From the NCBI GenBank assembly GCA_902499925.1, contig GCA_902499925.1_4130.1: a stretch of DNA of 64,000 nucleotides; one strand, given 5' to 3'. Below are positions 1-49,281 of this stretch, in pieces. The translations under genes were made by a program, and so were the position numbers. Each line of letters opens with the position of its first letter. Positions within the stretch are counted from its first letter, which is position 1. The notes under the pieces are model-generated. The model was not told the DNA's origin. It was given only the letters and a program-made list of their open reading frames with translations, and made no database searches. The stretch is from Escherichia coli. Its GTDB lineage: Bacteria > Pseudomonadota > Gammaproteobacteria > Enterobacterales > Enterobacteriaceae.

Positions 1-104
1 TAGCTACTTCCCGCATCAGTTCATCAAAGTTAGCCATTTTATTACTCCTTTTAGTGGGGGAGGATATCTCCCCCTATGCAAAACATTATACGCTTTATTC
101 AGTA

Positions 105-368
105 CTATGCAAGTACTTTTTTCATATAAAGATTATATTCTACACCGCCGTAACCTTCTACGATGATATGTTTTGCGTTATCACGTTTGCATATAGTAAA
201 GGCATCGTTGACGTGTTTTGCATTTTCCAGGGCAACATCGCCGATAGCGGCACATACTGAACTAATAACGATATTCCGCAAAGTACTGGTATCATTAGCG
301 GTCATAGTAGTTTGCAGTACTACGTTGTCGTATACGTGTGCATTGATAGTGATTTCGATAGTGTTCAT
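105..368 (-). CDS. hypothetical small early protein (87 aa)
   Basis: Track ORF 105..422 trimmed to Met19; AGGAGA RBS upstream of ATG; 5'-UTR hairpin (388-409) and promoter-like box upstream. Confidence 0.55.
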   Translation of the reverse strand: MNTIEITINAHVYDNVVLQTTMTANDTSTLRNIVISSVCAAIGDVALENAKHVNDAFTICKRDNAKHIIVEGYGGVEYNLYMKKVLA

Positions 369-455
369 GGTGTATCTCCTGGACTTGAGGGGAAACCATT
401 TCCCCCTCTCGATATAAAACATTATACGTTAATCTAACTACAATGCAAGTACTTT

Positions 456-647
456 TTAAATTTTATTTCCGATATAGTCCGGTCTATTCTTTTCGGTCAT
501 ACGCTTTGCTAATGATTGCATATGGCTTATTGCGTTTAATGTGTCTTCCTCCAGGGATGAATCAACATAATCAGGATCATTCTTCACCTTGCAATGATTA
601 TGATATCGTAGTACTGCCAGTACTTTTTTAACTTCTTCAACTGTCAT
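456..647 (-). CDS. hypothetical protein (63 aa)
   Basis: Minus ORF whose ATG overlaps the stop of 644..916 (ATGA), suggesting translational coupling. Confidence 0.5.
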   Translation of the reverse strand: MTVEEVKKVLAVLRYHNHCKVKNDPDYVDSSLEEDTLNAISHMQSLAKRMTEKNRPDYIGNKI

Positions 648-916
648 AATAAGTATTCCACTTCGTTAGCTTTCAGGTTAGTATCAATCATCAGTGGATT
701 TTTGTAGTTCACAAAACGAGTAGTTTTCTCGATAGCGAATCCCATATAATCCAGCTTACTAACAGTACATTCATTCTTAAAAACTTCTTTCGCTGCATCG
801 ATGGCTGATTGCATGGATAACCGCCCATCTAAGTTAATATTTCCAAATGATCCACCAGCAGAAGTAGGATTACCGTTCATATCTTTAATGATCATAGTAG
901 CGGAGTAGCTGGACAT
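644..916 (-). CDS. hypothetical protein (90 aa)
   Basis: Minus ORF; RBS AAAAGGAAAC before ATG; 5'-UTR hairpin 938-958 and promoter upstream. Confidence 0.6.
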   Translation of the reverse strand: MSSYSATMIIKDMNGNPTSAGGSFGNINLDGRLSMQSAIDAAKEVFKNECTVSKLDYMGFAIEKTTRFVNYKNPLMIDTNLKANEVEYLL

Positions 917-1000
917 AATTTTGTTTCCTTTTAGTATCGGGGAGAACTATTCTCCCCTTGATGTAAACTATTATACAGTACTAATATACTTTGTCAATAC

Positions 1001-1222
1001 TTAATTACGTTTAAAATGATATGTGCCTTTATCATCCTGTACGCCCCATACTGATTTACCATCAACACCAGTGAAACCGGATTGTAATTCAATATGGAAA
1101 CCATTATTATCAACTACAAAAACTTTTTTATTTTCATCCCGATAACATTGATATTCTGAATCAACATTAAAGGCCGCATCATTCAGAAGATTGGAAGCGT
1201 AAATGCAAGTCATTGTAGTCAT
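1001..1222 (-). CDS. hypothetical protein (73 aa)
   Basis: Track ORF trimmed to Met12; RBS TTAAGGAAT; hairpin 1243-1262; promoter TTGCAT-16-TATAAT at 1277-1304. Confidence 0.6.
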   Translation of the reverse strand: MTTMTCIYASNLLNDAAFNVDSEYQCYRDENKKVFVVDNNGFHIELQSGFTGVDGKSVWGVQDDKGTYHFKRN

Positions 1223-1397
1223 GATTTTATTCCTTAATATACCAGGGAGAACCATTTCCCCCTCTCGATATAAAACATTATACTTGATTCTAAGTACAAT
1301 GCAAGTACTTTTTTAAAAATAGTTTTCAGTACTGAATACTTATATAATATATACACTTCCGCACCCTATGGGTCAGTGAGTTATCTCTCAATGAATA

Positions 1398-1437
1398 TAT
1401 AATAGCAAAGGGACTGACCGGAGTCAATCCCTTTTTT
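1398..1437 (-). promoter_or_regulatory. terminator-promoter cassette (early-region variant)
   Basis: Minus strand reads GGGATTGAC-tccg-GTCAGTCCC then TTTGC-TATTAT. Confidence 0.5.
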
Positions 1438-1445
1438 AATCTTTT

Positions 1446-2030
1446 TTATCGTGTTACCTTACTTGCTTCTACATCACGCTTTTTATAGTACTGATTCCAG
1501 ATATTGCGGGTTAAACCGTAATCAAGTACTTTAATAAGTCCATTACGATCCTGGCCGATATTCTGTTTTCTGATATCTCTTATCGTTAGTGTTGATAATG
1601 TATCATCAACGTGTTGTAGTGCATCAGCAAAGCGGTGCTGGCGTTCGATTGCATTACGTTTAATATTGTACTTTAATTCGTTGCACGCGTTAACGTGCTT
1701 CACACTGCCTTTACTTGCAGTACTCAACCGATCCATAACGATAAACATATTATCAGGATCGCATAAATGCATATGCACCTTTGCAAAGTACTGTTTCAAC
1801 TGAGGGCGGTCATAGTCTAAAAAATTCCATACCTTACATTCAGTTTCATTTTGTTCTACACCCGCATCACAATTCGCGACCTTAATCACTAACCGATCAT
1901 TTAAAGCGAAAACTATACGGGAAGAACCAGCACCGATGATCTCCAGGCCAGCTAACCGACAAGCTGAAAGGATCTCTTTGTTGGTTTCCATTTCTGACAG
2001 TGTACGGATGAATTTAGTATAATTACGCAT
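1446..2030 (-). CDS. protein kinase-like mini-kinase (194 aa)
   Basis: Track ORF trimmed to Met20 with RBS AAGGAGA; Gly-rich loop IGAGSSRIV, VIKV lysine, catalytic-loop-like RDIRKQN and DYG 18 residues later; protein ends about 20 aa after DYG. Confidence 0.55.
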   Translation of the reverse strand: MRNYTKFIRTLSEMETNKEILSACRLAGLEIIGAGSSRIVFALNDRLVIKVANCDAGVEQNETECKVWNFLDYDRPQLKQYFAKVHMHLCDPDNMFIVMDRLSTASKGSVKHVNACNELKYNIKRNAIERQHRFADALQHVDDTLSTLTIRDIRKQNIGQDRNGLIKVLDYGLTRNIWNQYYKKRDVEASKVTR

Positions 2031-2061
2031 TGTTTTATCTCCTTGAGTTAATGAAACTATA

Positions 2062-2304
2062 TTACAGTACTTTACTATCAATGGCAACTACTTTTTTAAC
2101 ATTAACGGCGTGGATCACTTCCTTCGTGTTTTTAGTACTGAATACTTTCGCCGCACCATTCACGACCGTGATACGATAGCGACCATTAACATCAACCATA
2201 TTAATAAAGTCCGGCGTGCTGAATGGTGTTGTTTTACATTTCAGTACTGTTAACAGTTCCACCAGCGATGTAGTTTCTTTGATACGTTTTTCTAAAGTAA
2301 TCAT
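2062..2304 (-). CDS. hypothetical protein (80 aa)
   Basis: Trimmed to Met20; RBS GGGGGAAACAAA; promoter TTGACA-17-TACTAT upstream; upstream region duplicated at 2580-2640. Confidence 0.5.
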   Translation of the reverse strand: MITLEKRIKETTSLVELLTVLKCKTTPFSTPDFINMVDVNGRYRITVVNGAAKVFSTKNTKEVIHAVNVKKVVAIDSKVL

Positions 2305-2361
2305 TTTGTTTCCCCCGTGTTGGTATGTACATATAGTACTAAAACATTTGAGTACTGTCAA

Positions 2362-2580
2362 TTAGATAATATTATATTTCTTAAAATAAAATGCGTCCTG
2401 TGTTGGTTGATACTCGATACCGTTACCGTTATTGACTTCAACTAATAAACCTTTGTCAATAAGTTTTTTAATAGTACGATACCCTTGTTGAAAATTGGTA
2501 AAATGTGAATCATTACGAAAGGTATAACCGTGCTTAACTGCTTCATCAATAGTTTTCTTTTCGATTTTAGATAATTTCAT
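2362..2580 (-). CDS. hypothetical protein (72 aa)
   Basis: Trimmed to Met20; RBS GGGAGAAACAAA; upstream leader nearly identical to that of 2062..2304. Confidence 0.5.
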   Translation of the reverse strand: MKLSKIEKKTIDEAVKHGYTFRNDSHFTNFQQGYRTIKKLIDKGLLVEVNNGNGIEYQPTQDAFYFKKYNII

Positions 2581-2633
2581 TTTGTTTCTCCCGTGTTGGT
2601 ATATGTACATAGTACTAAAACAATTGAGTACTG

Positions 2634-2888
2634 TCAACGTGATATTAGTTTTATTTTCTTATTATATTGTTGGTGTTCATATAGGTTTATCTTTCCTGTG
2701 TTCTCTATTACTATTCTGTTGTTAGTGTCTACATCGATTACACGCAGTTTTCCGTTGCTTAACTTCCTTGGTAATAGGTTACCATTAATAAACTCATTAG
2801 CAAGCTGTACGGCCTTTGTGATGATTCTCTGAGGTGCTTTATAGTGTACCCGCAAGATATTATCTTTATATAGTTGAACCTTAATCAT
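2634..2888 (-). CDS. hypothetical protein (84 aa)
   Basis: Minus ORF; RBS AGGATAAACTAAA directly after terminator hairpin of upstream gene. Confidence 0.55.
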   Translation of the reverse strand: MIKVQLYKDNILRVHYKAPQRIITKAVQLANEFINGNLLPRKLSNGKLRVIDVDTNNRIVIENTGKINLYEHQQYNKKIKLISR

Positions 2889-2902
2889 TTTAGTTTATCC
2901 TA

Positions 2903-2928
2903 TAAAAAAGGCGGGAACTGATCCCGCC
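2903..2928 (-). terminator. intrinsic terminator (hairpin GGCGGGATCAGTTCCCGCC + U-run on minus RNA)
   Basis: GC-rich inverted repeat followed by T6 in the direction of minus-strand transcription, immediately 3' of 2951..3346. Confidence 0.55.
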
Positions 2929-2950
2929 GTGTTGTTAGTACTGCAAGTTA

Positions 2951-3346
2951 TTAGATAACCTGGCGGCGTTTACTGTATACTGTTACACGATTACCCTTAC
3001 GGTCGTGTCGGATCTCTTTCTGGTTGCGAATCAGTTCACTTGGACGCTTAAGGTTTGCCAGGTGATCCGCGTGAGTCCAAGCGGTATGGTTTACCTGTAC
3101 TTTGATATCAGAACCAGCGATAAACTCATCTTGTGCGTTAAGTACTGCCGCCAGATCTTCCGCTCGTTTTAGTTCTGCTGCTGTTAGTACTGGCTCAGGT
3201 GAATTCACAATATCAGAGATCTCTTTGAACTGTACGGCCCAACGTTGGCCTTTCGGTGCATCTTTGCCCATGTCTTTAAATGCTGCTCCTTCCTCGCGTG
3301 CAACAATACGGGCAGCTTCACGGGTAGCGTAGAATTTAGTAATCAT
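2951..3346 (-). CDS. hypothetical protein (131 aa); paralog of 15602..15865
   Basis: Minus ORF, start at Met4 with AGGA RBS; shares KFYATREAARI...FKDMG...RWA...DRKGNRVTVY with 15602..15865. Confidence 0.6.
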   Translation of the reverse strand: MITKFYATREAARIVAREEGAAFKDMGKDAPKGQRWAVQFKEISDIVNSPEPVLTAAELKRAEDLAAVLNAQDEFIAGSDIKVQVNHTAWTHADHLANLKRPSELIRNQKEIRHDRKGNRVTVYSKRRQVI

Positions 3347-3441
3347 GGTATACATCCTATTAGTTAAGTTAGTACTACAAGTTAGAGTCTATTATAAAGT
3401 ACTATCTGGGCAATGTCAAATAGTACTTTAAATGGATTCTA

Positions 3442-3765
3442 TTACATGTCTTTCTTACGTTTTACATCGTAGTAGCGAACTGTTATTTCTTTGTTAATCT
3501 CTTTTTCGATGTGGTGAATAACTTTTTCTTTCGGGTTGAAACCTATAACGGTTTCTTTAATGATCTCCAAACCAGTGTATTCGCCTTGTGTGCCGTAACC
3601 GTATGTAAAGGTTTCATGTCCCAGGTCTTCCCAGCGGTCGCCAATTAACGCAGACACGTAGCAAGAGTGGTAAGTATTGCCGTGTGAATCAGTCCACCGA
3701 TTAACTTTAATGTCAAAGGAGGTTACAATTTTCAATTCTACTTTCTGGGCAAGGATCATAGCCAT
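3442..3765 (-). CDS. hypothetical protein (107 aa); paralog of 10290..10613
   Basis: Minus ORF; shares RWTDSHGNTYHSC(Y/H)VS and FTYGY motifs with 10290..10613; promoter 3822-3850 and hairpin 3789-3807 upstream. Confidence 0.6.
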   Translation of the reverse strand: MAMILAQKVELKIVTSFDIKVNRWTDSHGNTYHSCYVSALIGDRWEDLGHETFTYGYGTQGEYTGLEIIKETVIGFNPKEKVIHHIEKEINKEITVRYYDVKRKKDM

Positions 3766-3788
3766 TTTTATTTCTCTCTTTTAGTTAG

Positions 3789-3807
3789 GAGGGGAACCAT
3801 TCCCCTC
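3789..3807 (-). promoter_or_regulatory. 5'-UTR stem-loop (family member)
   Basis: GAGGGGAA-loop-TTCCCCTC inverted repeat between promoter and RBS. Confidence 0.5.
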
Positions 3808-3821
3808 ACTTGATGTAAACT

Positions 3822-3850
3822 ATTATACAGTACTAAGATACTTTGTCAAT
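3822..3850 (-). promoter_or_regulatory. sigma70-like early promoter (TTGACA-16/17-TATAAT)
   Basis: Reverse complement reads TTGACAaagtatcttagtactgTATAAT. Confidence 0.6.
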
Positions 3851-3852
3851 AC

Positions 3853-4035
3853 TTATTTTTTGGAAAGTTTACGCATTAATTCTACGCTTTCTTGTGAACG
3901 TTTTGCTACCTGGCAAGCTGCATGGACAGTAAACATTTTTGTATAGTCTGACGCTTTGCCACCGAACCGAGCGGCACGTTCACGGGCACTTGGAACTAAT
4001 ACTATTTCTTTCTTGCAGATAGTGCACTTAGCCAT
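3853..4035 (-). CDS. small CxxC protein (60 aa)
   Basis: Trimmed to Met16 (MAKCTICKKE); RBS GAGAGAAATAAAA; hairpin upstream. Confidence 0.5.
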   Translation of the reverse strand: MAKCTICKKEIVLVPSARERAARFGGKASDYTKMFTVHAACQVAKRSQESVELMRKLSKK

Positions 4036-4123
4036 TTTTATTTCTCTCTCTTTGTTAGGAGGGGAACCGTTTCCCCTCACTCGATGTAAACTATTATACA
4101 GTACTAAGATACTTTGTCAATAC

Positions 4124-4399
4124 TTAATTATTGTAAATGTCGTGAATAGTGATAAAGTTTTTACGACCGTAAACCTGCAAATCAATATCAATGTAGTGCT
4201 TATCTAGTACATCCTCGACGCTTAACGCGGTGTCGTGGATATCTTCGTAGAATTGAGGATCTACAATCTTGCTTAAGTCATCCGGCGTTAACTTATCGTT
4301 AAGCCATTGAACCGCCTGGATATCTGCTTCACGTTTCCAGTCTTCCAGGTTAGTAGTCAGTACTTGTTCGATTTCGTTAGCTGTCAGTAGAATCCGCAT
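4124..4399 (-). CDS. hypothetical acidic protein (91 aa)
   Basis: Minus ORF; RBS AAGGAAACATAAAA. Confidence 0.6.
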   Translation of the reverse strand: MRILLTANEIEQVLTTNLEDWKREADIQAVQWLNDKLTPDDLSKIVDPQFYEDIHDTALSVEDVLDKHYIDIDLQVYGRKNFITIHDIYNN

Positions 4400-4665
4400 T
4401 TTTATGTTTCCTTATCAGTGGTTGATGTAAGTATTATACTCTTTTACTTTCTATTGTCAAACTATTTTATCAGGGGAGGTTTTCTTATGTCTTACTCCTG
4501 GACTACTTAACGGGGTTACTTGTTTCGTTCCCCGTCCTGATGTAAAACATTATACTTGATTCTAAGTACAATGCAAGTACTTTTTTAAAAATAGTTTTCA
4601 GTACTAGCCACCAGCATATAATAGATACATTTATGCACCCTGTGGGCTGATTTGTTTCTATGCGT

Positions 4666-4705
4666 ATATAATAGCAAAGGGACTGACCGGAGTCAATCCC
4701 TTTTT
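4666..4705 (-). promoter_or_regulatory. terminator-promoter cassette (early-region variant)
   Basis: Same element as 1398-1437. Confidence 0.5.
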
Positions 4706-4714
4706 CAATTATTT

Positions 4715-4864
4715 TTAAACTTCTTTCGGGTTGCGATAGGTGATAGCGTTCGGGTACATTTGTTTAATGTTATTCCATGCCTGGTTAACATTGTAACCAC
4801 TTGAGCGAATCAGTTGGTTACTACCGACACCTTGAAACACTACTTCGAATAAGAATTCTTTCAT
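4715..4864 (-). CDS. hypothetical small protein (49 aa)
   Basis: Untracked ORF MKEFLFEVVFQGVGSNQ...; ATG overlaps TGA of 4861..5034 (ATGA); followed by terminator cassette 4666-4705. Confidence 0.35.
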   Translation of the reverse strand: MKEFLFEVVFQGVGSNQLIRSSGYNVNQAWNNIKQMYPNAITYRNPKEV

Positions 4865-5034
4865 GCTTTCACCTCGCGATCTGCTTTACCTTTACGCCAG
4901 GACATTACTAATTGTTCGCGTTGCCATAAGTCGAGTGATACAAAAAGTTTTGCGGTATCACTTTTAGGATACTCGCCATTAGTACCTAACCGATAAAACA
5001 GATCTTTCAGTACTGATAATTCTACTTGGATCAT
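4861..5034 (-). CDS. hypothetical protein (57 aa)
   Basis: Track ORF 4861..5136 trimmed to Met35 (MIQVELS) with RBS AGAGGAAAG; hairpin upstream. Confidence 0.5.
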   Translation of the reverse strand: MIQVELSVLKDLFYRLGTNGEYPKSDTAKLFVSLDLWQREQLVMSWRKGKADREVKA

Positions 5035-5120
5035 TATACTTTCCTCTTTGTTGGGAGGGGAACTATTCCCCTCTCGATATAAAACATTATACACTTTATT
5101 CAGTACTGTGCAAGTACTTT

Positions 5121-5333
5121 TTAATCTTTCAGCCAATGATCCTGAATGAATTTTTCGCCGGAACCTTGCTGCATAGATTGTAACAGACGTTCACGATGAG
5201 CGGCGGCGAATTGCTCAGTACTATGCGTTACACCTGGTTGATATCTGGATTCACCATTGGGGGCGATGTATTGTACATCCCACGGTTTTTCGTTAGTATC
5301 AGACCATTTACGAACGATTAGTTGACCTTGCAT
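5121..5333 (-). CDS. hypothetical protein (70 aa)
   Basis: Minus ORF; RBS AGAGGAAAGAAAA; hairpin GGGGAGAATCATTTCTCCCC upstream. Confidence 0.6.
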   Translation of the reverse strand: MQGQLIVRKWSDTNEKPWDVQYIAPNGESRYQPGVTHSTEQFAAAHRERLLQSMQQGSGEKFIQDHWLKD

Positions 5334-5416
5334 TTTTCTTTCCTCTTAGTGGGGAGAATCATTTCTCCCCTTCATGTAAACTATTATACAGTACTAGATT
5401 ATCTTGTCAATAGTTT

Positions 5417-5740
5417 TTATTCACCTTGTTTGAATTTAGTTTTCTCCATTGATTCCATGATTGCAACCAATACACCGTGGATCTCGCTTAACGCGGAATC
5501 ACTAAAAGCATTAATGAATAGTCGATCATTCTCGCGAATATTTTTAATGTACTTTTCAGCAGTAGTTGCGAATTCATTCAACGGTAGATCAAATGCTTTA
5601 TCCCATGATGGATGGCGTAATTGTAACAGTACTGGATTATCACGATCACCAGGGGAAAACGTACCAGTGATGAAACATACGCCCGGAATACTTTCGAACT
5701 GGCAACGGACTTCCTTTGTGATAGTAGTATGAATGTACAT
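5417..5740 (-). CDS. hypothetical protein (107 aa)
   Basis: Minus ORF; RBS AGAGGATAACAATAA. Confidence 0.6.
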   Translation of the reverse strand: MYIHTTITKEVRCQFESIPGVCFITGTFSPGDRDNPVLLQLRHPSWDKAFDLPLNEFATTAEKYIKNIRENDRLFINAFSDSALSEIHGVLVAIMESMEKTKFKQGE

Positions 5741-5767
5741 TTATTGTTATCCTCTATTAAATTAATA

Positions 5768-5956
5768 TTACAGTTTATGAATCAATTCTTTATCTAAGCG
5801 ATAGCGTACATTATTAATGGTAACAGCATTATTTTTAATGCTACGCTGTACAGGTCCACCAGCAATAACAAATGTTGCTTTATTACCCCGAACAATGATA
5901 GCACTTCCAGGATTACCGAAATCATCTTGTACTAAAATACTTGATAAGTTTTCCAT
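5768..5956 (-). CDS. hypothetical protein (62 aa)
   Basis: Minus ORF; RBS AGAGGAAATAAAA; hairpin upstream. Confidence 0.55.
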   Translation of the reverse strand: MENLSSILVQDDFGNPGSAIIVRGNKATFVIAGGPVQRSIKNNAVTINNVRYRLDKELIHKL

Positions 5957-6034
5957 TTTTATTTCCTCTTAGTAGGGGAAGATGTTTCCCCTTGATGTAA
6001 GTACTATAACAGTACTGAAAACTAAATGCAAGTA

Positions 6035-6391
6035 CTATGATAAAATCATGATAGGATATTCACTATCGATCAGTACCTCGAATCCGAAACCTTCGTACCA
6101 TTCTTTAAGATTAAAGGCGTTATCTTCTCCCGTATCGCATTCTAAGATGATACAATCTGAATCATCAGCGGCATCGATAAAGGCATTCATTAATTCGTTA
6201 CCTTCACCATTGCCCCGACTATCAGGATCAACATAAAGAGAATCAATAAACGCTACACGGTCATAATCAAGATCCGGTGCAATGATTCCACGTTTAACAA
6301 ACCAGTACTGCAATTGTGCTACTTTGCCCTGTACTTGATAGCCAGTGATCTCGCCATTGTCAGTAGTACGCGTGATATGTTGTATTCCCAT
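6035..6391 (-). CDS. GNAT-like N-acetyltransferase (118 aa), tentative
   Basis: Motif VDPDSRGNGEGNELMNAF resembles the GNAT acetyl-CoA-binding motif A; RBS GAGGATAG; TATAAT box upstream. Confidence 0.5.
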   Translation of the reverse strand: MGIQHITRTTDNGEITGYQVQGKVAQLQYWFVKRGIIAPDLDYDRVAFIDSLYVDPDSRGNGEGNELMNAFIDAADDSDCIILECDTGEDNAFNLKEWYEGFGFEVLIDSEYPIMILS

Positions 6392-6455
6392 GATTACTAT
6401 CCTCAGTTAAGATATAAAACATTATACACTATCTTTCAGTACTGTCAATTACTTT

Positions 6456-6713
6456 TTATCTCATAGATCTATGCCAACAATTACGCGGGGGACGTTTAAA
6501 AGTACTATCATGATCCTCCTGGCAAGTAATGCAGTACATGCACCCTATAACGGCCTGGCGTCGATTCTCAGGGATTTTATCGCCGCAGTCGAGGCAATGT
6601 ACTAGTGATTCTCTTTGTGCGTTAATTTGCTTTCTAGCGTGGTTGACGGCGGCCTGAATCACTGCGTTGATCTCGTCTTGTTCGGCCCCGTCTTTCGCGT
6701 ATCCTACTGCCAT
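6456..6713 (-). CDS. TraR/DksA-family C4 zinc-finger protein (85 aa)
   Basis: C-x2-C...C-x2-C arrangement (CLDCGDKIPENRRQAV...CITCQ) typical of TraR/DksA zinc fingers; RBS GAGGTTAAAATA. Confidence 0.6.
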   Translation of the reverse strand: MAVGYAKDGAEQDEINAVIQAAVNHARKQINAQRESLVHCLDCGDKIPENRRQAVIGCMYCITCQEDHDSTFKRPPRNCWHRSMR

Positions 6714-7042
6714 TATTTTAACCTCATTATAAAAATACTATAGTACTGTAATGCTACAATAATACTACTAGTGTTTATCTTATTCAAACCATATGATACT
6801 ACATATCCATCAGCATTACCACGGATAGTAACGCCTTTGTACTGTCTATATAAATTCAACTGCGTATATTGCCTTTGATCAAGAATTGATCAGAATTATA
6901 CGCCTTATGCTAAATTAATCCAGTACTTTTTTGATCATTTATTGATCGATATTATATAGTTACATTTGTGCACCCTATGGGTTAGTGACGTTCTCGTCTT
7001 GATGTAAGTATTATGCCAGTACTGGAGGATATTGTCAATAGA

Positions 7043-7246
7043 TTATTTTAATTTTTTTCTGTCATTGATTAATGCTTTCAGTACTATACTAATAACTTGC
7101 AATGATTCATCAATGACAATGAAATTATTCTCTTTCATTAGATGATAGTTACCATTGATTGTATATTCTAACGAGTACTGTTTACGTTTAATTTTTGATA
7201 ATGTTTCTATTTGTTTTTGTACTGATTTCATGCTAATCATTGTCAA
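7043..7246 (-). CDS. hypothetical protein (67 aa)
   Basis: Minus ORF; weak RBS; follows terminator-like hairpin 7314-7339. Confidence 0.4.
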   Translation of the reverse strand: MTMISMKSVQKQIETLSKIKRKQYSLEYTINGNYHLMKENNFIVIDESLQVISIVLKALINDRKKLK

Positions 7247-7345
7247 ACGTCCTGTAACGCATTCTAACGAGATAAACGGTTTAGTACTGGCATTGTATAG
7301 GGTAAATGATTAAAGCCCACCAGCGTTAACCAGTGGGCTATAATC

Positions 7346-7489
7346 TTACATCTTGCGGATAATCTTAACAGTATCTTTCACCGATTTACCGTTTTGCTGA
7401 CATTGCTCGATCATCGCGTATTGTTCTGCGGTCAGATCCTCGCCAGTTTTTGCCAGTACTGCGTCGATGAATGAATCCAGTGCGATCAT
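7346..7489 (-). CDS. hypothetical small protein (47 aa)
   Basis: Untracked ORF MIALDSFIDAVLAKTGEDL...; RBS AGAGAGAAACAAA. Confidence 0.35.
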   Translation of the reverse strand: MIALDSFIDAVLAKTGEDLTAEQYAMIEQCQQNGKSVKDTVKIIRKM

Positions 7490-7588
7490 TTTGTTTCTCT
7501 CTTAGGTTAAGTTAACTACTGTTTATAAAACTTATTATACAGTACTATCAAACGTTGTCAATATCTTTAATAGTACTGGTAATATATT

Positions 7589-7768
7589 TTAGCGGTAATC
7601 GTCGTATGCTTTATTCACCTGGCGAATGTAACTTTCAAAGGCTTCGTCTACCGTTTCATACTCCCGAACATAATCACCATAGGAAACTACATACATACCT
7701 TTTTGATCTTCAAACGTCATGATGATAGAATCCAGGCCGATGATTTCAGTTTTTGCGATGATAGCCAT
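7589..7768 (-). CDS. hypothetical protein (59 aa)
   Basis: Trimmed to Met22; RBS AAGGAATTAAAA. Confidence 0.5.
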   Translation of the reverse strand: MAIIAKTEIIGLDSIIMTFEDQKGMYVVSYGDYVREYETVDEAFESYIRQVNKAYDDYR

Positions 7769-7850
7769 TTTTAATTCCTTAGTAGTGTAGTTGATAAAAG
7801 TTATTATGCCAGTACTATCAATCAGTGTCAATAGTACTGTGATAATATTT

Positions 7851-8063
7851 TTAGTTAATGATAGTCAGTGTAAAATTGTAATCCCCTGCCTGGTATAGTA
7901 CTTTGTCGCCGAACGTTCCAACACGTTTCATATTGCAATAGATACCCATAACACTTTTTACATCTTTGATATTCCGAACGCCAGTAATATCCTTGTTTAA
8001 ATGATCGTGATCAGAAAATAAAACTTGTTTTGCATTTTTCAGTACAGTGCAGATATTAGCCAT
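7851..8063 (-). CDS. hypothetical protein (70 aa)
   Basis: Minus ORF; hairpin 8084-8103 and promoter upstream. Confidence 0.55.
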   Translation of the reverse strand: MANICTVLKNAKQVLFSDHDHLNKDITGVRNIKDVKSVMGIYCNMKRVGTFGDKVLYQAGDYNFTLTIIN

Positions 8064-8083
8064 TTTGTTTTCTCTCTGTTAGT

Positions 8084-8103
8084 GGGGAGAATCATTTCTC
8101 CCC
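8084..8103 (-). promoter_or_regulatory. 5'-UTR stem-loop (family member)
   Basis: Perfect 8-bp inverted repeat GGGGAGAA-tcat-TTCTCCCC. Confidence 0.5.
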
Positions 8104-8157
8104 TTGATGTAAACTATTATACAGTACTATAATCTATTGTCAAACTATTTTTTTATA

Positions 8158-8499
8158 TTATTCGAAATCTTCTGGACCGGACTGATAATCATCTTCACCG
8201 TATGCACTTTCTAACCGCTCACCAGTGTGATCATCAGTTAGTGAGTCATCCTCATAGTTCACGTCTACGCCAGTGATGTAAAACTGGCTATCGTCTGGAT
8301 CATTGAAATTAATTTTTTGGATGTTTACAATAACTGTATTGATACCCAGGACACCGCCATCAGCCGTTACAAAGTACTGATAGTTTTCGCAACCGCCTGA
8401 ATTGAAACCGTAATTAATTTCGGCCCGACCATCATTTAAACGCAGTGCCTGGGCGATGATTTCATTTTCAAAGTTAGATTGAGCAATTGAGATAGTCAT
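8158..8499 (-). CDS. hypothetical acidic protein (113 aa)
   Basis: Minus ORF; RBS AAGGAAACAAATC; hairpin upstream. Confidence 0.6.
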   Translation of the reverse strand: MTISIAQSNFENEIIAQALRLNDGRAEINYGFNSGGCENYQYFVTADGGVLGINTVIVNIQKINFNDPDDSQFYITGVDVNYEDDSLTDDHTGERLESAYGEDDYQSGPEDFE

Positions 8500-8681
8500 G
8501 ATTTGTTTCCTTATTACCAGGGGAAACCGTTTCCCCTTTCGATGTAAAACATTATACGCTTATTGAGATAGTTTGCAAGTACTTTCTACAAATACTTTTA
8601 AAATAGTTTTCAGTACTCAAACATTATATAATAGATACACTTATGCACCCTGTGGGCTAGTGAGCTATCTCTCAATGAATA

Positions 8682-8720
8682 TATAATAGCAAAATGGCTG
8701 ACCGGAGTCAACCACTTTTT
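8682..8720 (-). promoter_or_regulatory. terminator-promoter cassette (early-region variant)
   Basis: TGGTTGAC-tccg-GTCAGCCA then TATTAT. Confidence 0.5.
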
Positions 8721-8864
8721 TCATTTATTTTTAGCTTTTAGAATCGCCGCCTTTCGCGTCATGCCTTGCTTGATGTATTCCTGTACTTTCGCTTTACGTG
8801 CATTCGCTTTATTTGCTTTCGTAAACGCCGAACAACTTTTATAATTTAAGCCTGTTGGATTCAT
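8721..8864 (-). CDS. hypothetical small basic protein (47 aa)
   Basis: Untracked ORF MNPTGLNYKSCSAFTKANKANARKAK...; last gene of a three-gene coupled unit, followed by terminator cassette. Confidence 0.35.
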   Translation of the reverse strand: MNPTGLNYKSCSAFTKANKANARKAKVQEYIKQGMTRKAAILKAKNK

Positions 8865-8954
8865 TTAAATCACCATAAAGAATAGATAGGTTACTAACAA
8901 TGCCGCGATCAATGCACCGACCAGGGCCGAACTATAGTAAGCTAATGATTTCAT
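8865..8954 (-). CDS. hypothetical hydrophobic peptide (29 aa)
   Basis: Untracked ORF MKSLAYYSSALVGALIAALLVTYLFFMVI; ATG overlaps stop of 8951..9103. Confidence 0.3.
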   Translation of the reverse strand: MKSLAYYSSALVGALIAALLVTYLFFMVI

Positions 8955-9103
8955 TTTTTAGCCTGAAAGTAATGTTTAATTTGAGCGGCGGTCAGTGCAC
9001 AATTACGCAGGAAGTTTTCTGTATAACTGCGGCGAGTACTGAAAGAGAATTGACCTTTGCCGTTACCGATAGTAACATCAAACCGAGCGTTGTATTGTTT
9101 CAT
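8951..9103 (-). CDS. hypothetical protein (50 aa)
   Basis: Trimmed to Met11; RBS AGGAGAAACAAA; hairpin upstream. Confidence 0.45.
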   Translation of the reverse strand: MKQYNARFDVTIGNGKGQFSFSTRRSYTENFLRNCALTAAQIKHYFQAKK

Positions 9104-9181
9104 TTTGTTTCTCCTGTTATTGGGGAGAATCATTTCTCCCCTTCATGTAAAACATTATACAGTACTAAAAACTAATTGCAA

Positions 9182-9331
9182 GTACTATTTTTTAGATTTA
9201 CGCAAACTTTCTACCATCTCAGGAGTAAGGCCAGGCGGGTAGAAAACCACTTCATCAACGAAACGTAAAGGGAATACCCCATCTAAGGTTGAACGTGCTT
9301 TCTTGTTAGTACTCTTTTTTGATGCTTTCAT
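9182..9331 (-). CDS. hypothetical small basic protein (49 aa)
   Basis: Untracked ORF MKASKKSTNKKARSTLDG...; RBS AAGGAATATGAA; hairpin upstream. Confidence 0.4.
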
Positions 9332-9400
9332 TTCATATTCCTTAATTAGTGGGGAGAATCATTTCTCCCCTTCATGTAAAACATTATACGCGTTTAAAAA

Positions 9401-9610
9401 CTAATTGCAAGTACTATTTGAAAGTAAATGCTCATACGCTGCATTAACTACGTTTTCAATAACCGACTGTACAGAAAGATCCCCCACGGCCTGGCTATAG
9501 TAGAAATCGCTTACAGTGGTGTCATCGTATGCAAATACTTTACCAGGTACTGCATCAATCACATACATATTAACCTTTAAGATGTCGATCTTATCCTGTA
9601 CAGTAAGCAT
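9401..9610 (-). CDS. hypothetical protein (69 aa)
   Basis: Minus ORF; RBS AAAGGTTAATTAAT. Confidence 0.5.
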   Translation of the reverse strand: MLTVQDKIDILKVNMYVIDAVPGKVFAYDDTTVSDFYYSQAVGDLSVQSVIENVVNAAYEHLLSNSTCN

Positions 9611-9615
9611 ATTAA

Positions 9616-9888
9616 TTAACCTTTTAAGTACTGGCTTAAGTAGTCTTGTTGATCTTCGGTGATTGCAGCCATCTTCCCTAGTACTGGATTGATGATATAA
9701 TCCCCTGTAACGTCCTGTAACGCATTCTCAGGCGGTTTAACGGCTGGGGTAGCCATAGCCATTGCCTGGACTTGTTCGACGCTGTAACGCTCATAAAGGC
9801 GGCATTCTTCCGGTGTTAACATAGCATCAGTACGCTTCATCGGTTTAATGATGCTTTCGATCTCATTCAGTACTTGATTAACGTTCAT
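9616..9888 (-). CDS. hypothetical protein (90 aa)
   Basis: Minus ORF; RBS GGGGATTATACC. Confidence 0.55.
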   Translation of the reverse strand: MNVNQVLNEIESIIKPMKRTDAMLTPEECRLYERYSVEQVQAMAMATPAVKPPENALQDVTGDYIINPVLGKMAAITEDQQDYLSQYLKG

Positions 9889-9939
9889 GGTATAATCCCC
9901 AATATAAGCGGCCTGAATCGACCGCTAACGATGTTTTGA

Positions 9940-10209
9940 TTAATAGGTGTATGGTTGACGCTCAAACAATGATTGCACGTTGTACGCCCCGCTTATGGGC
10001 TTCGCTGGTAAATCAATTTTATATTGTTCACGCTTAAAGATAATAAAACGGCAATTGTTTTTAACATCAAAATTGATTGAACGTTCCAGGAGTTTTCCAT
10101 CGTGCACAAATACAAGATAACCGCTTGCTACTTGTTTTGTAGTACTGGTTGCAACCATAGACCGACGAACATGTGTACCTGCATCGATTAAAGTACTGAT
10201 ATTTTTCAT
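9940..10209 (-). CDS. hypothetical protein (89 aa)
   Basis: Minus ORF; RBS AAGAGGATCGTATA. Confidence 0.6.
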   Translation of the reverse strand: MKNISTLIDAGTHVRRSMVATSTTKQVASGYLVFVHDGKLLERSINFDVKNNCRFIIFKREQYKIDLPAKPISGAYNVQSLFERQPYTY

Positions 10210-10289
10210 TATACGATCCTCTTAAGTTAATTTAATTTCTTTCCCCTATGCAGACACTATATCAAAGTATCTGCATAAAGTAAAGCTAA

Positions 10290-10613
10290 TTAAAGATCTT
10301 TTTTGCGTTTAACATTCTGTACAGTACAATGCAACGGGATATTAAGATCATTGCACAAACGAGTAAGGGAGGTTTCATCAGTATTAAGCCCGTCTACTGA
10401 TTCCTTTAAGAGAGATAACGCCGTTTGTTGATATGCATCTTCATAGCCATAAGTAAATGATTCAACCGCCAGATCATTCAAACCGTTATCCAGTTCAACG
10501 CTTACATGACAAGAATGATAAGTATTGCCATATGAATCAGTCCAACGTTTACCGTCAACATTGATTGCACGGATTGCAGCCAGGGAAACGGTGTTAATGA
10601 TAGTTTTAGCCAT
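10290..10613 (-). CDS. hypothetical protein (107 aa); paralog of 3442..3765
   Basis: Minus ORF; RBS AAGGAATACAAAA; shared RWTDS(Y/H)GNTYHSC motif. Confidence 0.6.
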   Translation of the reverse strand: MAKTIINTVSLAAIRAINVDGKRWTDSYGNTYHSCHVSVELDNGLNDLAVESFTYGYEDAYQQTALSLLKESVDGLNTDETSLTRLCNDLNIPLHCTVQNVKRKKDL

Positions 10614-10702
10614 TTTTGTATTCCTTAAATTAATATGTTGTCTTGATAAAATCTATTATGCCAGTACTATCAAACTATGTCAATAGTACTGTGATAATAT
10701 TT

Positions 10703-10846
10703 TTACTTACTTTTTTCTTTCTTTATTACTTCCACCTGGTCGGCCCATTCTTTACCCCATACTTGTAAATTATAATGGTACTGGCAAAGAGCAACGCCCC
10801 GCTTTAAACCCGTAATAGATTTCTGACCACATTGACAAGTTTTCAT
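10703..10846 (-). CDS. hypothetical small Cys-containing protein (47 aa)
   Basis: Untracked ORF MKTCQCGQKSITGLKRGVALCQYH...; RBS AAGGAAACTAAA; hairpin upstream. Confidence 0.4.
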   Translation of the reverse strand: MKTCQCGQKSITGLKRGVALCQYHYNLQVWGKEWADQVEVIKKEKSK

Positions 10847-10932
10847 TTTAGTTTCCTTGTAGTGGGGAGAACCATTTCTCCCCTTGATGTAATGTATTAT
10901 ACTTTATTCGATTTACTTTGCAAGTACTTTTT

Positions 10933-11160
10933 TTAATTTAATTCATCAAGGCAAAGGATACGCTCAACGCCCAAATCAGTTAAACTAATCGACGGCACTT
11001 GATAGGTTTCAATGTATGCTACACTTGCCCACTGACCGAACTCATTAACGGCCCAGGTATTCATTGCATTTTGCAATTCCGCACCTTCCTTGTTGGTAAT
11101 GACTGCAACTACTTGTTCGTTGCCAGTAGTACCAGATACGCGAGTAATGATAATAGCCAT
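10933..11160 (-). CDS. hypothetical protein (75 aa)
   Basis: Trimmed to Met20; RBS AAAGGAATCAAAACA; promoter TTGCAC-16-TATAAT upstream. Confidence 0.55.
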   Translation of the reverse strand: MAIIITRVSGTTGNEQVVAVITNKEGAELQNAMNTWAVNEFGQWASVAYIETYQVPSISLTDLGVERILCLDELN

Positions 11161-11396
11161 TGTTTTGATTCCTTTGATTTGGAAGGAGAACCGTTTCCCC
11201 CTCTCGATGTAAAACATTATACGCTAATCTCTTAATCGTGCAAGTACTTTTTATTACTTTTTGCAAAATACTTTAAACGCTCTCAATCGCATTACAACGA
11301 CCTTAACGCCACCAGCTAGGGCAATTGCATCAGATAATCAGTTTAATGCGTTAGAATCGTTTCTAGGCGGTGCTGGTGGCCTGGTAAACGATAAAC

Positions 11397-11425
11397 ACAA
11401 AAAAGCCCACCATTTAAGGTGGGCT
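11397..11425 (-). terminator. intrinsic terminator
   Basis: Hairpin AGCCCACC-ttaaatg-GTGGGCT followed by U6 on minus-strand RNA, 3' of 11447..11929. Confidence 0.6.
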
Positions 11426-11446
11426 AGTGATTCAGTACTTTAATTG

Positions 11447-11929
11447 TTATGCTTCAACTTTGCGATGAGCTTCGATCCATTCCTCGCGAGTCATACCGCT
11501 GGAGTTAATCGCATCCAGTACTACAGCAATGCAGTTACCACGCACCGGAATCAGATATTCTTCCCCGTTGTCCAGTACTACCGCTACGCGTTCCTGAATC
11601 CATTTTTTTGCTTTTACTTCTGGCTTATCTTCCCCGTACTTAACCGCCAGGGCTTTTTGTGCCATCTCTGTAACTACTTCCAGATCCAGCCCAACTACTG
11701 CCGCCTGAATACTTTCAATTGTTGCTTGCAGTTCTGCTTCACGGGCCGCTTTCGCCGCTTCAATTTCTGCCGCTTTATTTGCTTGTAGTTCTTTCGCAGT
11801 ACTGTACGCGATGTTAAAATTATTGCGTACCGCTTTCATGGTATCGTTGTCCAGTTCAGCCAGGATCTCAGCCGCGACGTTAGTTTCATTTGCTACCAGT
11901 GCTTTGATGAATGATTTTACATTAGCCAT
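11447..11929 (-). CDS. Ala-rich protein, predicted coiled coil (160 aa)
   Basis: Trimmed to Met6; RBS GAGGATTTATAAA; promoter TTGACA-16-TAGAAT upstream. Confidence 0.6.
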   Translation of the reverse strand: MANVKSFIKALVANETNVAAEILAELDNDTMKAVRNNFNIAYSTAKELQANKAAEIEAAKAAREAELQATIESIQAAVVGLDLEVVTEMAQKALAVKYGEDKPEVKAKKWIQERVAVVLDNGEEYLIPVRGNCIAVVLDAINSSGMTREEWIEAHRKVEA

Positions 11930-12131
11930 TTTATAAATCCTCAATTAAAGTTTAGTTTACGTTTATTAGTGTATCAAAGTTTTCTCGACGTGTCCAGTTT
12001 TTCGTTCGACTTACTGGCGGTCTACTTAGTGCTCCCCGTCTTGATGTAATACATTCTACGCCTTTTTGCGGTAATGTCAACTACTTTTTTTAAAACTATT
12101 TTCAAAGTATCTCAGTACTACGATACTATAA

Positions 12132-12161
12132 AAACAAAAAAGCCCACTGTATAAGTGGGCT
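12132..12161 (-). terminator. intrinsic terminator
   Basis: Hairpin AGCCCACT-tataca-GTGGGCT followed by U-run on minus RNA, 3' of 12179..12478. Confidence 0.6.
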
Positions 12162-12178
12162 AGTGATTCAGTACTAGA

Positions 12179-12478
12179 TTATAAACAGTTAATTACTCCG
12201 GTGTGCGTTACTTTCTCAGTATCCATTACAGTGACCGAACCGCGTTTAGTACTTGCATCGTAATAAATTGTCGTGCTACCTTTTTCGTCTTCTTCATGGA
12301 ACGGGCCGCTTTTAAATGCTTCTGGCTGGATCTCTAAATCCTTTAAAACAATCTCGCCAGTACTTTCATTGGTCATCGCTACAGTGCACTGAATGAATTT
12401 TTCATTACTTACATCTAACGACGCATTAACAGCGAAAGAGGAAACAGATAAAGCCAGGGCGATGATTGCAATTTTCAT
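12179..12478 (-). CDS. secreted protein with N-terminal signal peptide (99 aa)
   Basis: N-terminus MKIAIIALALSVSSFAVNA is signal-peptide-like; RBS AAGGATAATCAA. Confidence 0.6.
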   Translation of the reverse strand: MKIAIIALALSVSSFAVNASLDVSNEKFIQCTVAMTNESTGEIVLKDLEIQPEAFKSGPFHEEDEKGSTTIYYDASTKRGSVTVMDTEKVTHTGVINCL

Positions 12479-12562
12479 TTGATTATCCTTAGTTACCAGG
12501 GGGAACCGCTCCCCCTTGCGATGTAAAATATTATACAGTTCTAAAAACTATTATCAAGTACT

Positions 12563-12799
12563 TTATGATTTTTTATAAAACATTTCAGCAGTGATATTTT
12601 TACCCGTTGGCTGTACTTTATCCAGGATTTTTTGATGTCCAGGCCGACCAAATGAATATGATCCGTAAACCGTAAACCAGTAGTTACCCTCAGTGTTTAC
12701 ATGTACAGCACAATAAGGAACACCACGCGATTCATCACTAGTAAAGTGTGATACCGTTCCCGTTACATTCGCAGACGTTGATTTGATTTGTTCGAGCAT
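12563..12799 (-). CDS. hypothetical protein (78 aa)
   Basis: Minus ORF; RBS AAGGAATAAGAAA; hairpin upstream. Confidence 0.55.
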   Translation of the reverse strand: MLEQIKSTSANVTGTVSHFTSDESRGVPYCAVHVNTEGNYWFTVYGSYSFGRPGHQKILDKVQPTGKNITAEMFYKKS

Positions 12800-12906
12800 T
12801 TTCTTATTCCTTAGTTACCAGGGGAACCACTCCCCTATGCAAAACATTATACGCGTTTAAAAACTAATTGCAAGTATTTTAATAAAAAGTATTTGAAAAA
12901 TAGTTG

Positions 12907-12935
12907 TTGACAAGTGCATCCAGTACTGGCATAAT
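12907..12935 (+). promoter_or_regulatory. plus-strand (antisense-oriented) sigma70-like promoter
   Basis: TTGACA-17-CATAAT read on the plus strand; CCCACCGGGTGC box about 30 nt downstream; no plus-strand ORF follows. Confidence 0.4.
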
Positions 12936-13003
12936 TACTACATAAAGACAAAACAGTCTCTAACCCACCGGGTGCCGAGATCCGTCTATTAAATGATTCA
13001 GTA

Positions 13004-13036
13004 CTGAAAAAGTAACGGGGAGTTATTATCTCCCCG
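13004..13036 (-). terminator. intrinsic terminator
   Basis: Hairpin CGGGGAGATAATAACTCCCCG then UUACUUUUUC on minus RNA, 3' of 13042..13263. Confidence 0.55.
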
Positions 13037-13041
13037 CGTTG

Positions 13042-13263
13042 TTATTTGGTAAGGTATAAACAGAAGTCACCTTTATTTGCTACGCCGCCAGTGTAACGCG
13101 ATGAATAGTTAGAAACGTCCTGGACTTCTGCTATTACCAGTGTATCATCATTCATTTCGTCGCAGAAGCAAACGGCTGGATCTTGTACGCCGATTTTGTC
13201 GGCATGTTCCCGCATAGATTTAACCAGTGCTTCCAGTTGGGAAAGAGTAGTGATATTAGCCAT
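13042..13263 (-). CDS. hypothetical protein (73 aa)
   Basis: Trimmed to Met11; RBS GAGGAAAATAAA; hairpin upstream. Confidence 0.55.
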   Translation of the reverse strand: MANITTLSQLEALVKSMREHADKIGVQDPAVCFCDEMNDDTLVIAEVQDVSNYSSRYTGGVANKGDFCLYLTK

Positions 13264-13349
13264 TTTATTTTCCTCATTACCAGGGAGAACCATTTCTCCC
13301 TTTGATGTAAACCATTATACAGTACTGAAAACTAATTGCAAGTACTTTT

Positions 13350-13553
13350 TTAATTTAATTGCTTTAAAACATACTCAAAGACACCACGCACATCATTGAT
13401 CATCGCCTGGCGGTTAGCAGGTAACGCATCAGGATCGCCACTATCCCAGGCATTGATAAAACTCCCCAAATCATGATAGATTTTATTCTGTAAGCCGATT
13501 AACTGCAATTCTTTTTCTTCAAGCTCTTTGATACGTTCAATTAAATCACTCAT
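13350..13553 (-). CDS. hypothetical protein (67 aa)
   Basis: Trimmed to Met13; RBS GAGGATTATCTA, identical context to 13571..13855. Confidence 0.5.
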   Translation of the reverse strand: MSDLIERIKELEEKELQLIGLQNKIYHDLGSFINAWDSGDPDALPANRQAMINDVRGVFEYVLKQLN

Positions 13554-13570
13554 TAGATAATCCTCAGTAC

Positions 13571-13855
13571 TTAACTGTAAGATCCGCAACGGTCGCAGTA
13601 GTGCCCGTCCTCGTCATCGTCAACGAATTGACCGACGAAATGATCTACTTTCGCTTTCAGGTTATTATAATCGTTTTCTACTTCCGTTAAACGCTTCTGG
13701 TAGTATTCCAGTGCTTTAAGATATGCCGCATCAGCAGTTTTCTCCTGCATAGCTAAATTCATGCCACGCGTTTCATCGTACAGCCAAAAACCATCGGTGC
13801 ACTCACTGATTGACAATGATTTACTTAACACATTGTACTTTATTACTTTACTCAT
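13571..13855 (-). CDS. hypothetical protein with C-terminal CxxC (94 aa)
   Basis: Trimmed to Met14; RBS GAGGATTATCTA; C-terminus HYCDRCGSYS; hairpin upstream. Confidence 0.55.
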   Translation of the reverse strand: MSKVIKYNVLSKSLSISECTDGFWLYDETRGMNLAMQEKTADAAYLKALEYYQKRLTEVENDYNNLKAKVDHFVGQFVDDDEDGHYCDRCGSYS

Positions 13856-13911
13856 TAGATAATCCTCAGTAAAGGCGGGAACCATTCCCGCCATTGATTC
13901 AGTACTGAATG

Positions 13912-14151
13912 TTACATTCCAACCATTGCGGCACGGATCGCAGTAGTGCTATACTTGAATCCGTCCGGCGTTGTAGTAGTACCGTTGGCTTTTAATCTGC
14001 GGTACATACATTGGGCCGCAATATCTTTAGTTTTACATTGTGCGATGCAACTTTGAGCAAGCCGATATAATGACTCACCGTTATTAATCCACAATGAAAC
14101 ATTCCAATGAGTTTTGTTTTTGTGCCCGTTGTAAGTTTTAGTACTAGCCAT
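13912..14151 (-). CDS. hypothetical protein (79 aa); paralog of 15951..16190
   Basis: Trimmed to Met11; RBS GAGGATTTAAAA; shares GHKNKTHWNVSLWINN...PDGFKYSTTAIRAAMVGM. Confidence 0.55.
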   Translation of the reverse strand: MASTKTYNGHKNKTHWNVSLWINNGESLYRLAQSCIAQCKTKDIAAQCMYRRLKANGTTTTPDGFKYSTTAIRAAMVGM

Positions 14152-14241
14152 TTTTAAATCCTCGTTTGAGCGGGGAACCATTCCCCGCCTCGATATAAAG
14201 TATTATACGCTTTTAAACTTAGTTTGCAAGTACTTTTTGAA

Positions 14242-49243: not shown

Positions 49244-49281
49244 TTGATAAACATTATACAGTACTGAATGAGTTTGTCAAC

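Follow-up and report, generated by a model that had tools for sequence, protein, structure and literature searches.

F-plasmid TraR is composed of an N-terminal helix carrying the motif DxxDxA, a zinc domain with arginines R48 and R49, and a C-terminal helix that contacts betaSi1 (PMC9239242). The two arginines contact the rim helices and beta'Si3 of RNA polymerase, DxxDxA is critical in both TraR and DksA, and phage homologues of TraR bind RNA polymerase and reprogram transcription (PMC9239242). According to a data-not-shown remark, overexpression of the related Escherichia coli protein YbiI rescues dksA auxotrophy, while the authors of that work considered iron metabolism its likelier role (PMC2613031). 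Beyond this single remark our literature search found no functional work on YbiI, and no study testing the YbiI-type zinc-finger proteins of phages.

GNAT acetyltransferases have been described in several phage settings. Rac, from phiKMV-like Pseudomonas phages, acts on RNA polymerase alpha (PMC7552054), and Iyer et al. predict a Rac-like action of jumbo-phage GNATs on the host transcription machinery (PMC7824862). A GNAT domain is also found beside ART in polyvalent proteins of gammaproteobacterial phages, for which protein substrates were predicted (Iyer et al., PMC5512222). AcrVA5 (PDB 6IUF), a GNAT with anti-CRISPR activity, acetylates Cas12a. We report here how a pair of neighboring phage genes, one for a TraR/DksA-type zinc-finger protein and one for a GNAT protein, compares with these systems.

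The gene pair and its phage

The window, the whole stretch of 64,000 nucleotides that was analysed, belongs to an Asteriusvirus jumbo coliphage. Megablast of positions 5000-8000 gives 97% identity to fEgEco12 and JNE01 and 92% to 121Q. An earlier note, made from the sequence without database searches, had placed adjacent GNAT-like and TraR/DksA-type genes at 6035-6713. This segment corresponds exactly to two ORFs in the ORF listing, both on the minus strand and each with an ATG start, so that the limits proposed were exact (Table 1). The HMM searches which that note recommended agree with its family assignments, as the GNAT and the TraR/DksA models both exceed their Pfam curated cut-offs, with scores far above what chance would give.

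The RefSeq record of 121Q lists the pair as gp295 ('GNAT family N-acetyltransferase') and gp294 ('DksA-like zinc-finger protein'), and both are annotated in ~20 further public records. Because the 121Q record carries identical labels, the family names were already public and the two assignments are already known for Asteriusvirus genomes. The 48-aa ORF that precedes the zinc-finger gene matches none of the family models and its product is hypothetical in 121Q and in PBECO4. Its stop and the start codon of the zinc-finger gene overlap in TAATG, an arrangement in which translational coupling is possible.

Table 1. Features of the gene pair and its surroundings (window positions).
Feature	Position	Strand	Basis or remark
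CDS, 118 aa, minimal GNAT acetyltransferase (predicted)	6035..6391	-	Pfam, PHROG, AlphaFold model
Shine-Dalgarno GAGGA of the GNAT gene	6400..6404	-	read in sequence
Sigma-70-type promoter TTGACA-N16-TATAAT (12/12)	6421..6448	-	perfect consensus
420-bp segment with the GNAT gene and promoter halves	6018..6437	-	present here, absent in PBECO4
CDS, 85 aa, YbiI-subtype TraR/DksA C4 zinc-finger protein	6456..6713	-	Pfam, PHROG, NCBIfam, PDB matches
Shine-Dalgarno GAGGT of the zinc-finger gene	6721..6725	-	read in sequence
48-aa ORF, TTG start	6713..6859	-	hypothetical gp293 in 121Q
Degenerate second-class promoter copy (repeat family D5)	6895..6935	-	perfect TATAAT 6900-6895
Promoter-like TTGACA-N17-CATAAT with TG (11/12)	7010..7038	-	nearest strong candidate upstream of the zinc-finger gene
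Intrinsic-terminator-like hairpin	4676..4703	-	next downstream of both genes
Intrinsic-terminator-like hairpin	8691..8718	-	upstream bound of the transcription region

Other features of the window are recorded here for completeness. On the plus strand, 14 diverged paralogues stand in tandem at 23391-41295; they code for proteins of 264-449 aa with 24-42% pairwise identity, and the first matches RCC1 and RCC1-like beta-propeller repeat models. Within the early region, four minus-strand ORFs share a length of exactly 107 aa (3442-3765, 5417-5740, 10290-10613 and 13571-13894) and on this ground may be paralogues forming a small family; DUF7247 is matched by the ORF at 5417-5740. Positions 47399-47533 gave a weak tblastn match to the zinc-finger protein (E 0.017) and were rejected as a paralogue for want of family support.

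The zinc-finger protein and the RNA polymerase secondary channel

The zinc-finger protein matches PF01258 (dksA/traR C4; E 3.7e-09, 36.9 bits for a cut-off of 24.9) and PHROG 54, 'DksA-like zinc-finger protein' (7.6e-19). Its knuckle reads C40-LD-C43-GDKIPENRRQAVIGCMY-C61-IT-C64, that is CxxC-x17-CxxC, and includes IPENRRQA, in accordance with the paired cysteines and the IPxxRRQA motif recognized in the earlier note. The zinc ligands C40, C43, C61 and C64 are invariant among 45 relatives, and so are I47-P48 and the RR pair R51-R52. Apart from the zinc finger itself, the best-conserved stretch in these relatives is formed by residues 1-12. The conserved amino terminus MAVGYAKDGAEQ follows the family pattern M-A-x-G-x-A-K-D-G-A-x-Q, also written MAxGFAKDGAxQ, in which M1, A2, G4, A6, K7, D8, G9, A10 and Q12 are invariant or near-invariant. 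The C-terminal tail FKRPPRNCWHRSMR is found only in phage versions.

Several comparisons place the protein nearest to YbiI. Among NCBIfam models the YbiI equivalog ranks highest (PRK11019, 9.4e-23), although the score lies under its curated cut-off (80.4 vs 96 bits), as it does for TIGR02419 (C4_traR_proteo; 49.1 vs 59.7 bits) and for NF033459 DksA_like (14.1 vs 105 bits). A search of PDB sequences returned YbiI (2KGO) at 3e-12 and RNA polymerase-bound TraR at 7.5e-06, and Foldseek of the predicted model ranked YbiI first (7e-05) and TraR in its complex with RNA polymerase second. E. coli YbiI, the closest match in sequence and fold, shares the MAxG(F/W/Y)AxD amino terminus, a single long helix, CxxC-x17-CxxC and IPxxRRxA. 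Identity to it is only ~40%, however, and the phage versions have a conserved FKRxPRNCWHRSMR where the cellular proteins have the C-terminus GYNRRGSKDSQLR.

Cellular YbiI-type proteins of 88 aa are ~50% identical to the phage protein, and relatives at 60-72% identity are encoded by the T4-like phages Moon, RZ, MHG19 and fHe-Yen9-01. The family was detected by tblastn in 947 phage records, mostly of T4-like phages. On these sequence comparisons the 85-aa protein is assigned to the TraR/DksA family as a phage version of the YbiI branch.

The protein is also similar in size to TraR and to its phage homologues such as lambda Orf73, with which it has in common the helix and zinc knuckle and its carriage on mobile elements of Proteobacteria. 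Hhalign aligns its residues 21-71 onto TraR 18-68 with 98.6% probability, leaving the tips unaligned. The RR pair is kept, R51 and R52 corresponding to TraR R48 and R49, and is invariant among the relatives. In contrast to TraR, DxxDxA is absent from residues 1-30, where it was sought, and the tip region, the 20 residues at the amino terminus, is unalignable; in a gap-free register TraR D3, D6 and A8 fall on A6, G9 and E11.

The predicted model (pLDDT 72) features a helix at residues 8-28, the knuckle and a short helix at 62-68, beyond which the tail is poorly defined, of low confidence, and contains P75-P76. The predicted C-terminal helix is thus short when compared to that of TraR and is followed by a Pro-Pro basic tail. 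The gene also differs from traR in residing in virulent jumbo and T4-like phages rather than in temperate phages or plasmids. DksA, of ~150 aa and with a two-helix coiled coil and residues that bind ppGpp, is further removed from this 85-aa protein with its single N-terminal helix.

The proposal of the earlier note that the cysteine spacing and IPxxRRQA mark a binder of the RNA polymerase secondary channel stands in part: the zinc knuckle and the RR pair are there, but the protein is of the YbiI subtype and DxxDxA is missing. The protein probably docks in the channel, a reading that is plausible rather than secure. The knuckle and R51-R52 would dock at the channel rim of E. coli RNA polymerase and the long N-terminal helix would point into the channel, altering initiation at kinetically sensitive promoters in a manner independent of ppGpp. 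The strength and even the direction of this effect are uncertain because the A-K-D-G-A tip differs from DxxDxA. As this non-TraR tip is itself conserved, a TraR-like outcome is not to be assumed.

A serious rival to a TraR-like outcome is that the protein competes passively for the secondary channel and exerts no allosteric inhibition of the TraR kind. Such a plug would exclude DksA/ppGpp and the Gre factors, shielding phage and rRNA/tRNA transcription from the stringent response. The combination of a lost DxxDxA tip with a retained RR pair and zinc knuckle is what would be expected of it. C4 proteins without DxxDxA can be inactive as regulators, and Rnk binds the secondary channel and competes there without Gre activity (PMC9239242). 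The high conservation of the first 12 residues favours instead an active tip, and P2 Orf82 and Gp34 regulate despite incomplete motifs (PMC9239242).

A weaker variant gives the protein a YbiI-like role unrelated to RNA polymerase, in line with the placing of YbiI in iron metabolism by some authors; the reported rescue of dksA auxotrophy by YbiI speaks against it (PMC2613031). Taken with this variant, the passive role is rather unlikely, and an active secondary-channel ligand remains the preferred reading of the zinc-finger protein.

The GNAT protein, its relatives and its substrate

The GNAT protein matches PF00583 (E 4.1e-09, 37.2 bits for a cut-off of 20.7), PF13508 (33.5 vs 27 bits) and PF13673 (26.3 vs 23.6 bits), and its PHROGs name is 'acetyltransferase'. 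The motif on which the first assignment was based is readable in the sequence: the motif A loop Q/R-x-x-G-x-G/A is found as R59-G-N-G62-E-G64. In 40 relatives G64, W98 and Y99 are invariant and R59, G62, D86, E89, G17-Y18 and P113 near-invariant. Judged by its place in the sequence, the invariant Y99 of W-Y-E-x-F-G-F would occupy the usual position of the general acid.

The protein covers only positions 53-116 of the 116 in the PF00583 profile, its C-terminal half. The AlphaFold model (pLDDT 93.4) consists of a beta-hairpin (residues 3-21) and one helix (25-33) followed by a beta4-alpha3-beta5-alpha4-beta6-beta7 core. The usual full beta1-alpha1-alpha2 arm at the amino terminus is not present in the model, which therefore describes a predicted minimal GNAT.

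A word-indexed protein search found only the Asteriusvirus copies, for which reason an exhaustive HMMER search was required to define the family. It identified 290 relatives at E<=1e-3 in 1.84 billion proteins, mostly of 117-150 aa and aligned to the query end to end. Sequence and profile searches of the PDB retrieved generic GNATs only, and PADLOC gave nothing useful. Among phages, tblastn against 50,697 records (E<=1e-3) located the gene in 25, all of them Asteriusvirus-type phages except for Klebsiella phage 05F01.

Some relatives are domains of larger proteins, recovered with E-values of 1e-9 to 1e-13 in the search of 1.84 billion proteins. One of 2284 aa (P0111) combines the GNAT domain (578-693) with ART-PolyVal (1003-1146) and NUDIX, another (P0064) unites GNAT, PARP and ParB_N, and further fusions involve a ParB C-terminal domain, Amidoligase_2 or DUF5661. 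In a more remotely related protein the domain is joined to a 2H phosphoesterase that matches Acb1 weakly. An amidoligase gene is located 1 kb upstream of a GNAT relative on one metagenomic phage contig of 335 kb.

The closest relative outside the genus has 123 aa and 48% identity and occurs in hundreds of metagenomic contigs of up to 1.3 Mb. In the loci L019-L022 (positions 7001-7372) it belongs to an integrated element of ~30% GC with many small ORFs. This element carries PF03230 Antirestrict, CcdA and SocA_Panacea adjoining the GNAT relative, as well as an AAA_23 ATPase and an HNH/RRXRR protein.

Over its full length the 118-aa protein is thus homologous to domains found with ART-PolyVal, PARP, ParB_N, NUDIX and Amidoligase_2, like the GNAT domain of polyvalent proteins. 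It fits the description that Iyer et al. give of their family, to which it may belong (PMC5512222). Unlike that domain, it is here encoded by a solo gene behind an early-type promoter and is not part of a large protein. From this arrangement, with a sigma-70 consensus promoter ahead of a solo gene, the protein is more likely made after infection than delivered in the virion. The protein would be a catalytically intact minimal enzyme, a solo copy of a domain that phages also build into polyvalent proteins, and it would acetylate a host protein soon after infection. Acetyltransferase activity towards a host protein is probable, and we infer the protein nature of the substrate from these relationships. 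Judging from the fusions and neighbours, the protein may be an effector for host proteins in general or for counter-defence; they give no specific indication of transcription.

Of the characterised structures, AcrVA5 fits the predicted model best. The likeness is in fold only: identity is 17-22%, and the GNAT protein is set apart by a further conserved helix, at residues 25-33, which bears an N-W motif. AcrVA5 does not figure in the phmmer list of the GNAT protein, nor among the best 60 of the 153 profile matches to PDB sequences. E. coli has, to our knowledge, no Cas12a, so that the target would have to differ from that of AcrVA5.

The substrate might instead be a small molecule, such as an antibiotic, a toxin, a polyamine, an amino-acid analogue or a nucleotide-derived signal. 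The matches to models of this kind are all far under their curated cut-offs and concern only the acetyl-CoA-binding half. The beta1-alpha1-alpha2 arm that shapes small-molecule pockets is missing from the predicted structure, relatives are fused to conflict domains directed at proteins or DNA (ART-PolyVal, ParB), and AcrVA5, which fits best of the characterised structures, acetylates lysine in a protein. A small-molecule substrate is consequently unlikely, and a host protein remains the favored target of the GNAT protein.

Presumed early-region setting and relationship of the two genes

The window contains 14 perfect TTGACA-N16/17-TATAAT sites for 0.11 expected, 13 of them on the minus strand. 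They fall in 1-18016, at 49253-49280 and at 60617-60644, and most have a conserved (T)AGTACTG directly before the -10 element; from their sequence, the AGTACTG-bearing sites look like a phage-specific extended early-promoter consensus. One perfect promoter is positioned 7 nt past the zinc-finger stop and 30 nt ahead of the GNAT start. The zinc-finger gene and the 48-aa ORF before it have a weaker candidate promoter in the degenerate second-class copy, in addition to the stronger one further upstream (Table 1). No terminator is found in the 64-nt spacer between the zinc-finger and GNAT genes, and read-through co-transcription of both is therefore likely.

Both genes sit among short ORFs. In phage vB_Ec-M-J they are annotated within the 21.5-kb direct terminal repeat, and assemblies that hold both terminal repeats have two GNAT copies. 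RpoD-like promoters of the related phage CBB are concentrated in the short-ORF region that its authors take as early (PMC5259590). No Asteriusvirus transcriptome or promoter analysis was found in the literature. The label of early genes given to the pair in the earlier note is thus backed indirectly, by the array of sigma-70 promoters, the short-ORF setting and the position in the terminal repeat, and early timing of both is plausible. The two genes would be transcribed co-directionally in an early region that depends on the host RNA polymerase and that lies in the terminal repeat of related genomes.

The intergenic regions of 1-9500 are made of repeated cassettes of ~100 nt with a promoter, a G+C hairpin and an RBS. 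There are at least eight repeats, each having a promoter, a conserved AGTTTACATCAAG, a GGGGAGAA...TTCTCCCC hairpin and a ACTAAGAGGAAA RBS. Cassettes of families D2-D4 are found at 930-1025, 3782-3877, 4062-4137, 5343-5438, 8076-8171, 9114-9209 and 9343-9438; a second class (families D1/D5) has a TTGCA -35 element. The cassettes resemble the PeSL elements that mediate gene shuffling in T4-type phages. A terminator-like hairpin AAAGGGATTGACTCCGGTCAGTCCCTTT is present on the minus strand in three copies (1388-1448, 4657-4717 and 8672-8732), each followed by a second conserved element, D10, which contains ACCCATAGGGTGCA. D10 occurs at 1342-1374, 4616-4648, 6951-6983 and 8626-8658; the copy at 6951-6983, upstream of the zinc-finger gene, has no terminator.

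Phage PBECO4 separates the two genes. Its zinc-finger protein is 92% identical while GNAT is absent, the next gene following directly after the zinc finger. The zinc-finger gene of PBECO4 (KC295538.1, 1501-1755) is intact, yet it has no CDS annotation in the GenBank record. Both breakpoints of the 420-bp segment that distinguishes the two genomes are within AGTACT-containing spacers of promoters like those of the cassettes. This insertion or deletion is reminiscent of shuffling by promoter-stem-loop (PeSL) elements, as described for T4-type phages (PMC2839356, PMC4122927). The zinc-finger profile found nothing within 4 kb of the GNAT relative in 11 loci outside Asteriusvirus, and phages RZ and Marfa have no GNAT beside the zinc finger, which sits in their tk-rI early region.

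It had been suggested that the two genes fit a host transcription takeover module. The zinc-finger protein would then occupy the secondary channel and the GNAT protein would acetylate RNA polymerase or a transcription factor, as Rac does. Rac, a phage GNAT acting on the host transcription machinery through RNA polymerase alpha, is a precedent for the mechanism envisaged (PMC7552054), and the prediction of Iyer et al. extends it to jumbo phages (PMC7824862). The genes are moreover adjacent, on the same strand, and joined by a spacer that transcription may cross.

The distribution of the genes speaks against such a module. The GNAT gene has its own consensus promoter, and when compared to PBECO4 it is a single-gene insertion or deletion of 420 bp that leaves the zinc finger in place. 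The two differ widely in frequency, with 25 phage records for the GNAT gene against 947 for the zinc finger, and they share no neighbourhood at the 11 other GNAT-relative loci (within 4 kb) or in RZ and Marfa. The tblastn search of the 50,697 phage records at E<=1e-3 matched no phiKMV-like phage, hence the GNAT protein is not a detectable Rac orthologue. The notion of a module is not sustained by these comparisons and we regard a coordinated takeover as very unlikely; on the genomes compared, the two are independently inherited accessory genes that form no conserved module.

The preferred reading of the locus as a whole, held with a probability of roughly 55%, is therefore one of independent accessory genes, with a zinc-finger protein that would bind the RNA polymerase secondary channel and a GNAT protein that would acetylate a host protein; we infer binding, substrate and timing. 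A more specific proposal, speculative and in our judgement improbable, joins a GNAT enzyme of the AcrVA5 kind, acting in counter-defence, to a YbiI-type zinc finger that represents a second class of phage secondary-channel ligand. Early in infection the enzyme would inactivate a host immunity protein, other than Cas12a, through acetylation of a key lysine. The second ligand class, with the conserved A-K-D-G-A tip in place of DxxDxA, would be widespread among virulent phages of the T4-like and jumbo kinds.

YbiI-type TraR/DksA proteins that lack DxxDxA are found in ~950 phage records, many of them from virulent T4-like phages. At stake is whether lytic phages also use the secondary-channel strategy shown for lambda Orf73, and whether the outcome changes with the tip. 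Given the polyvalent-protein and anti-restriction settings in which it occurs, the minimal GNAT family is a fair candidate for an enzymatic anti-defence or host-takeover activity that would be new, and its presence or absence between sister phages offers a natural single-gene comparison.
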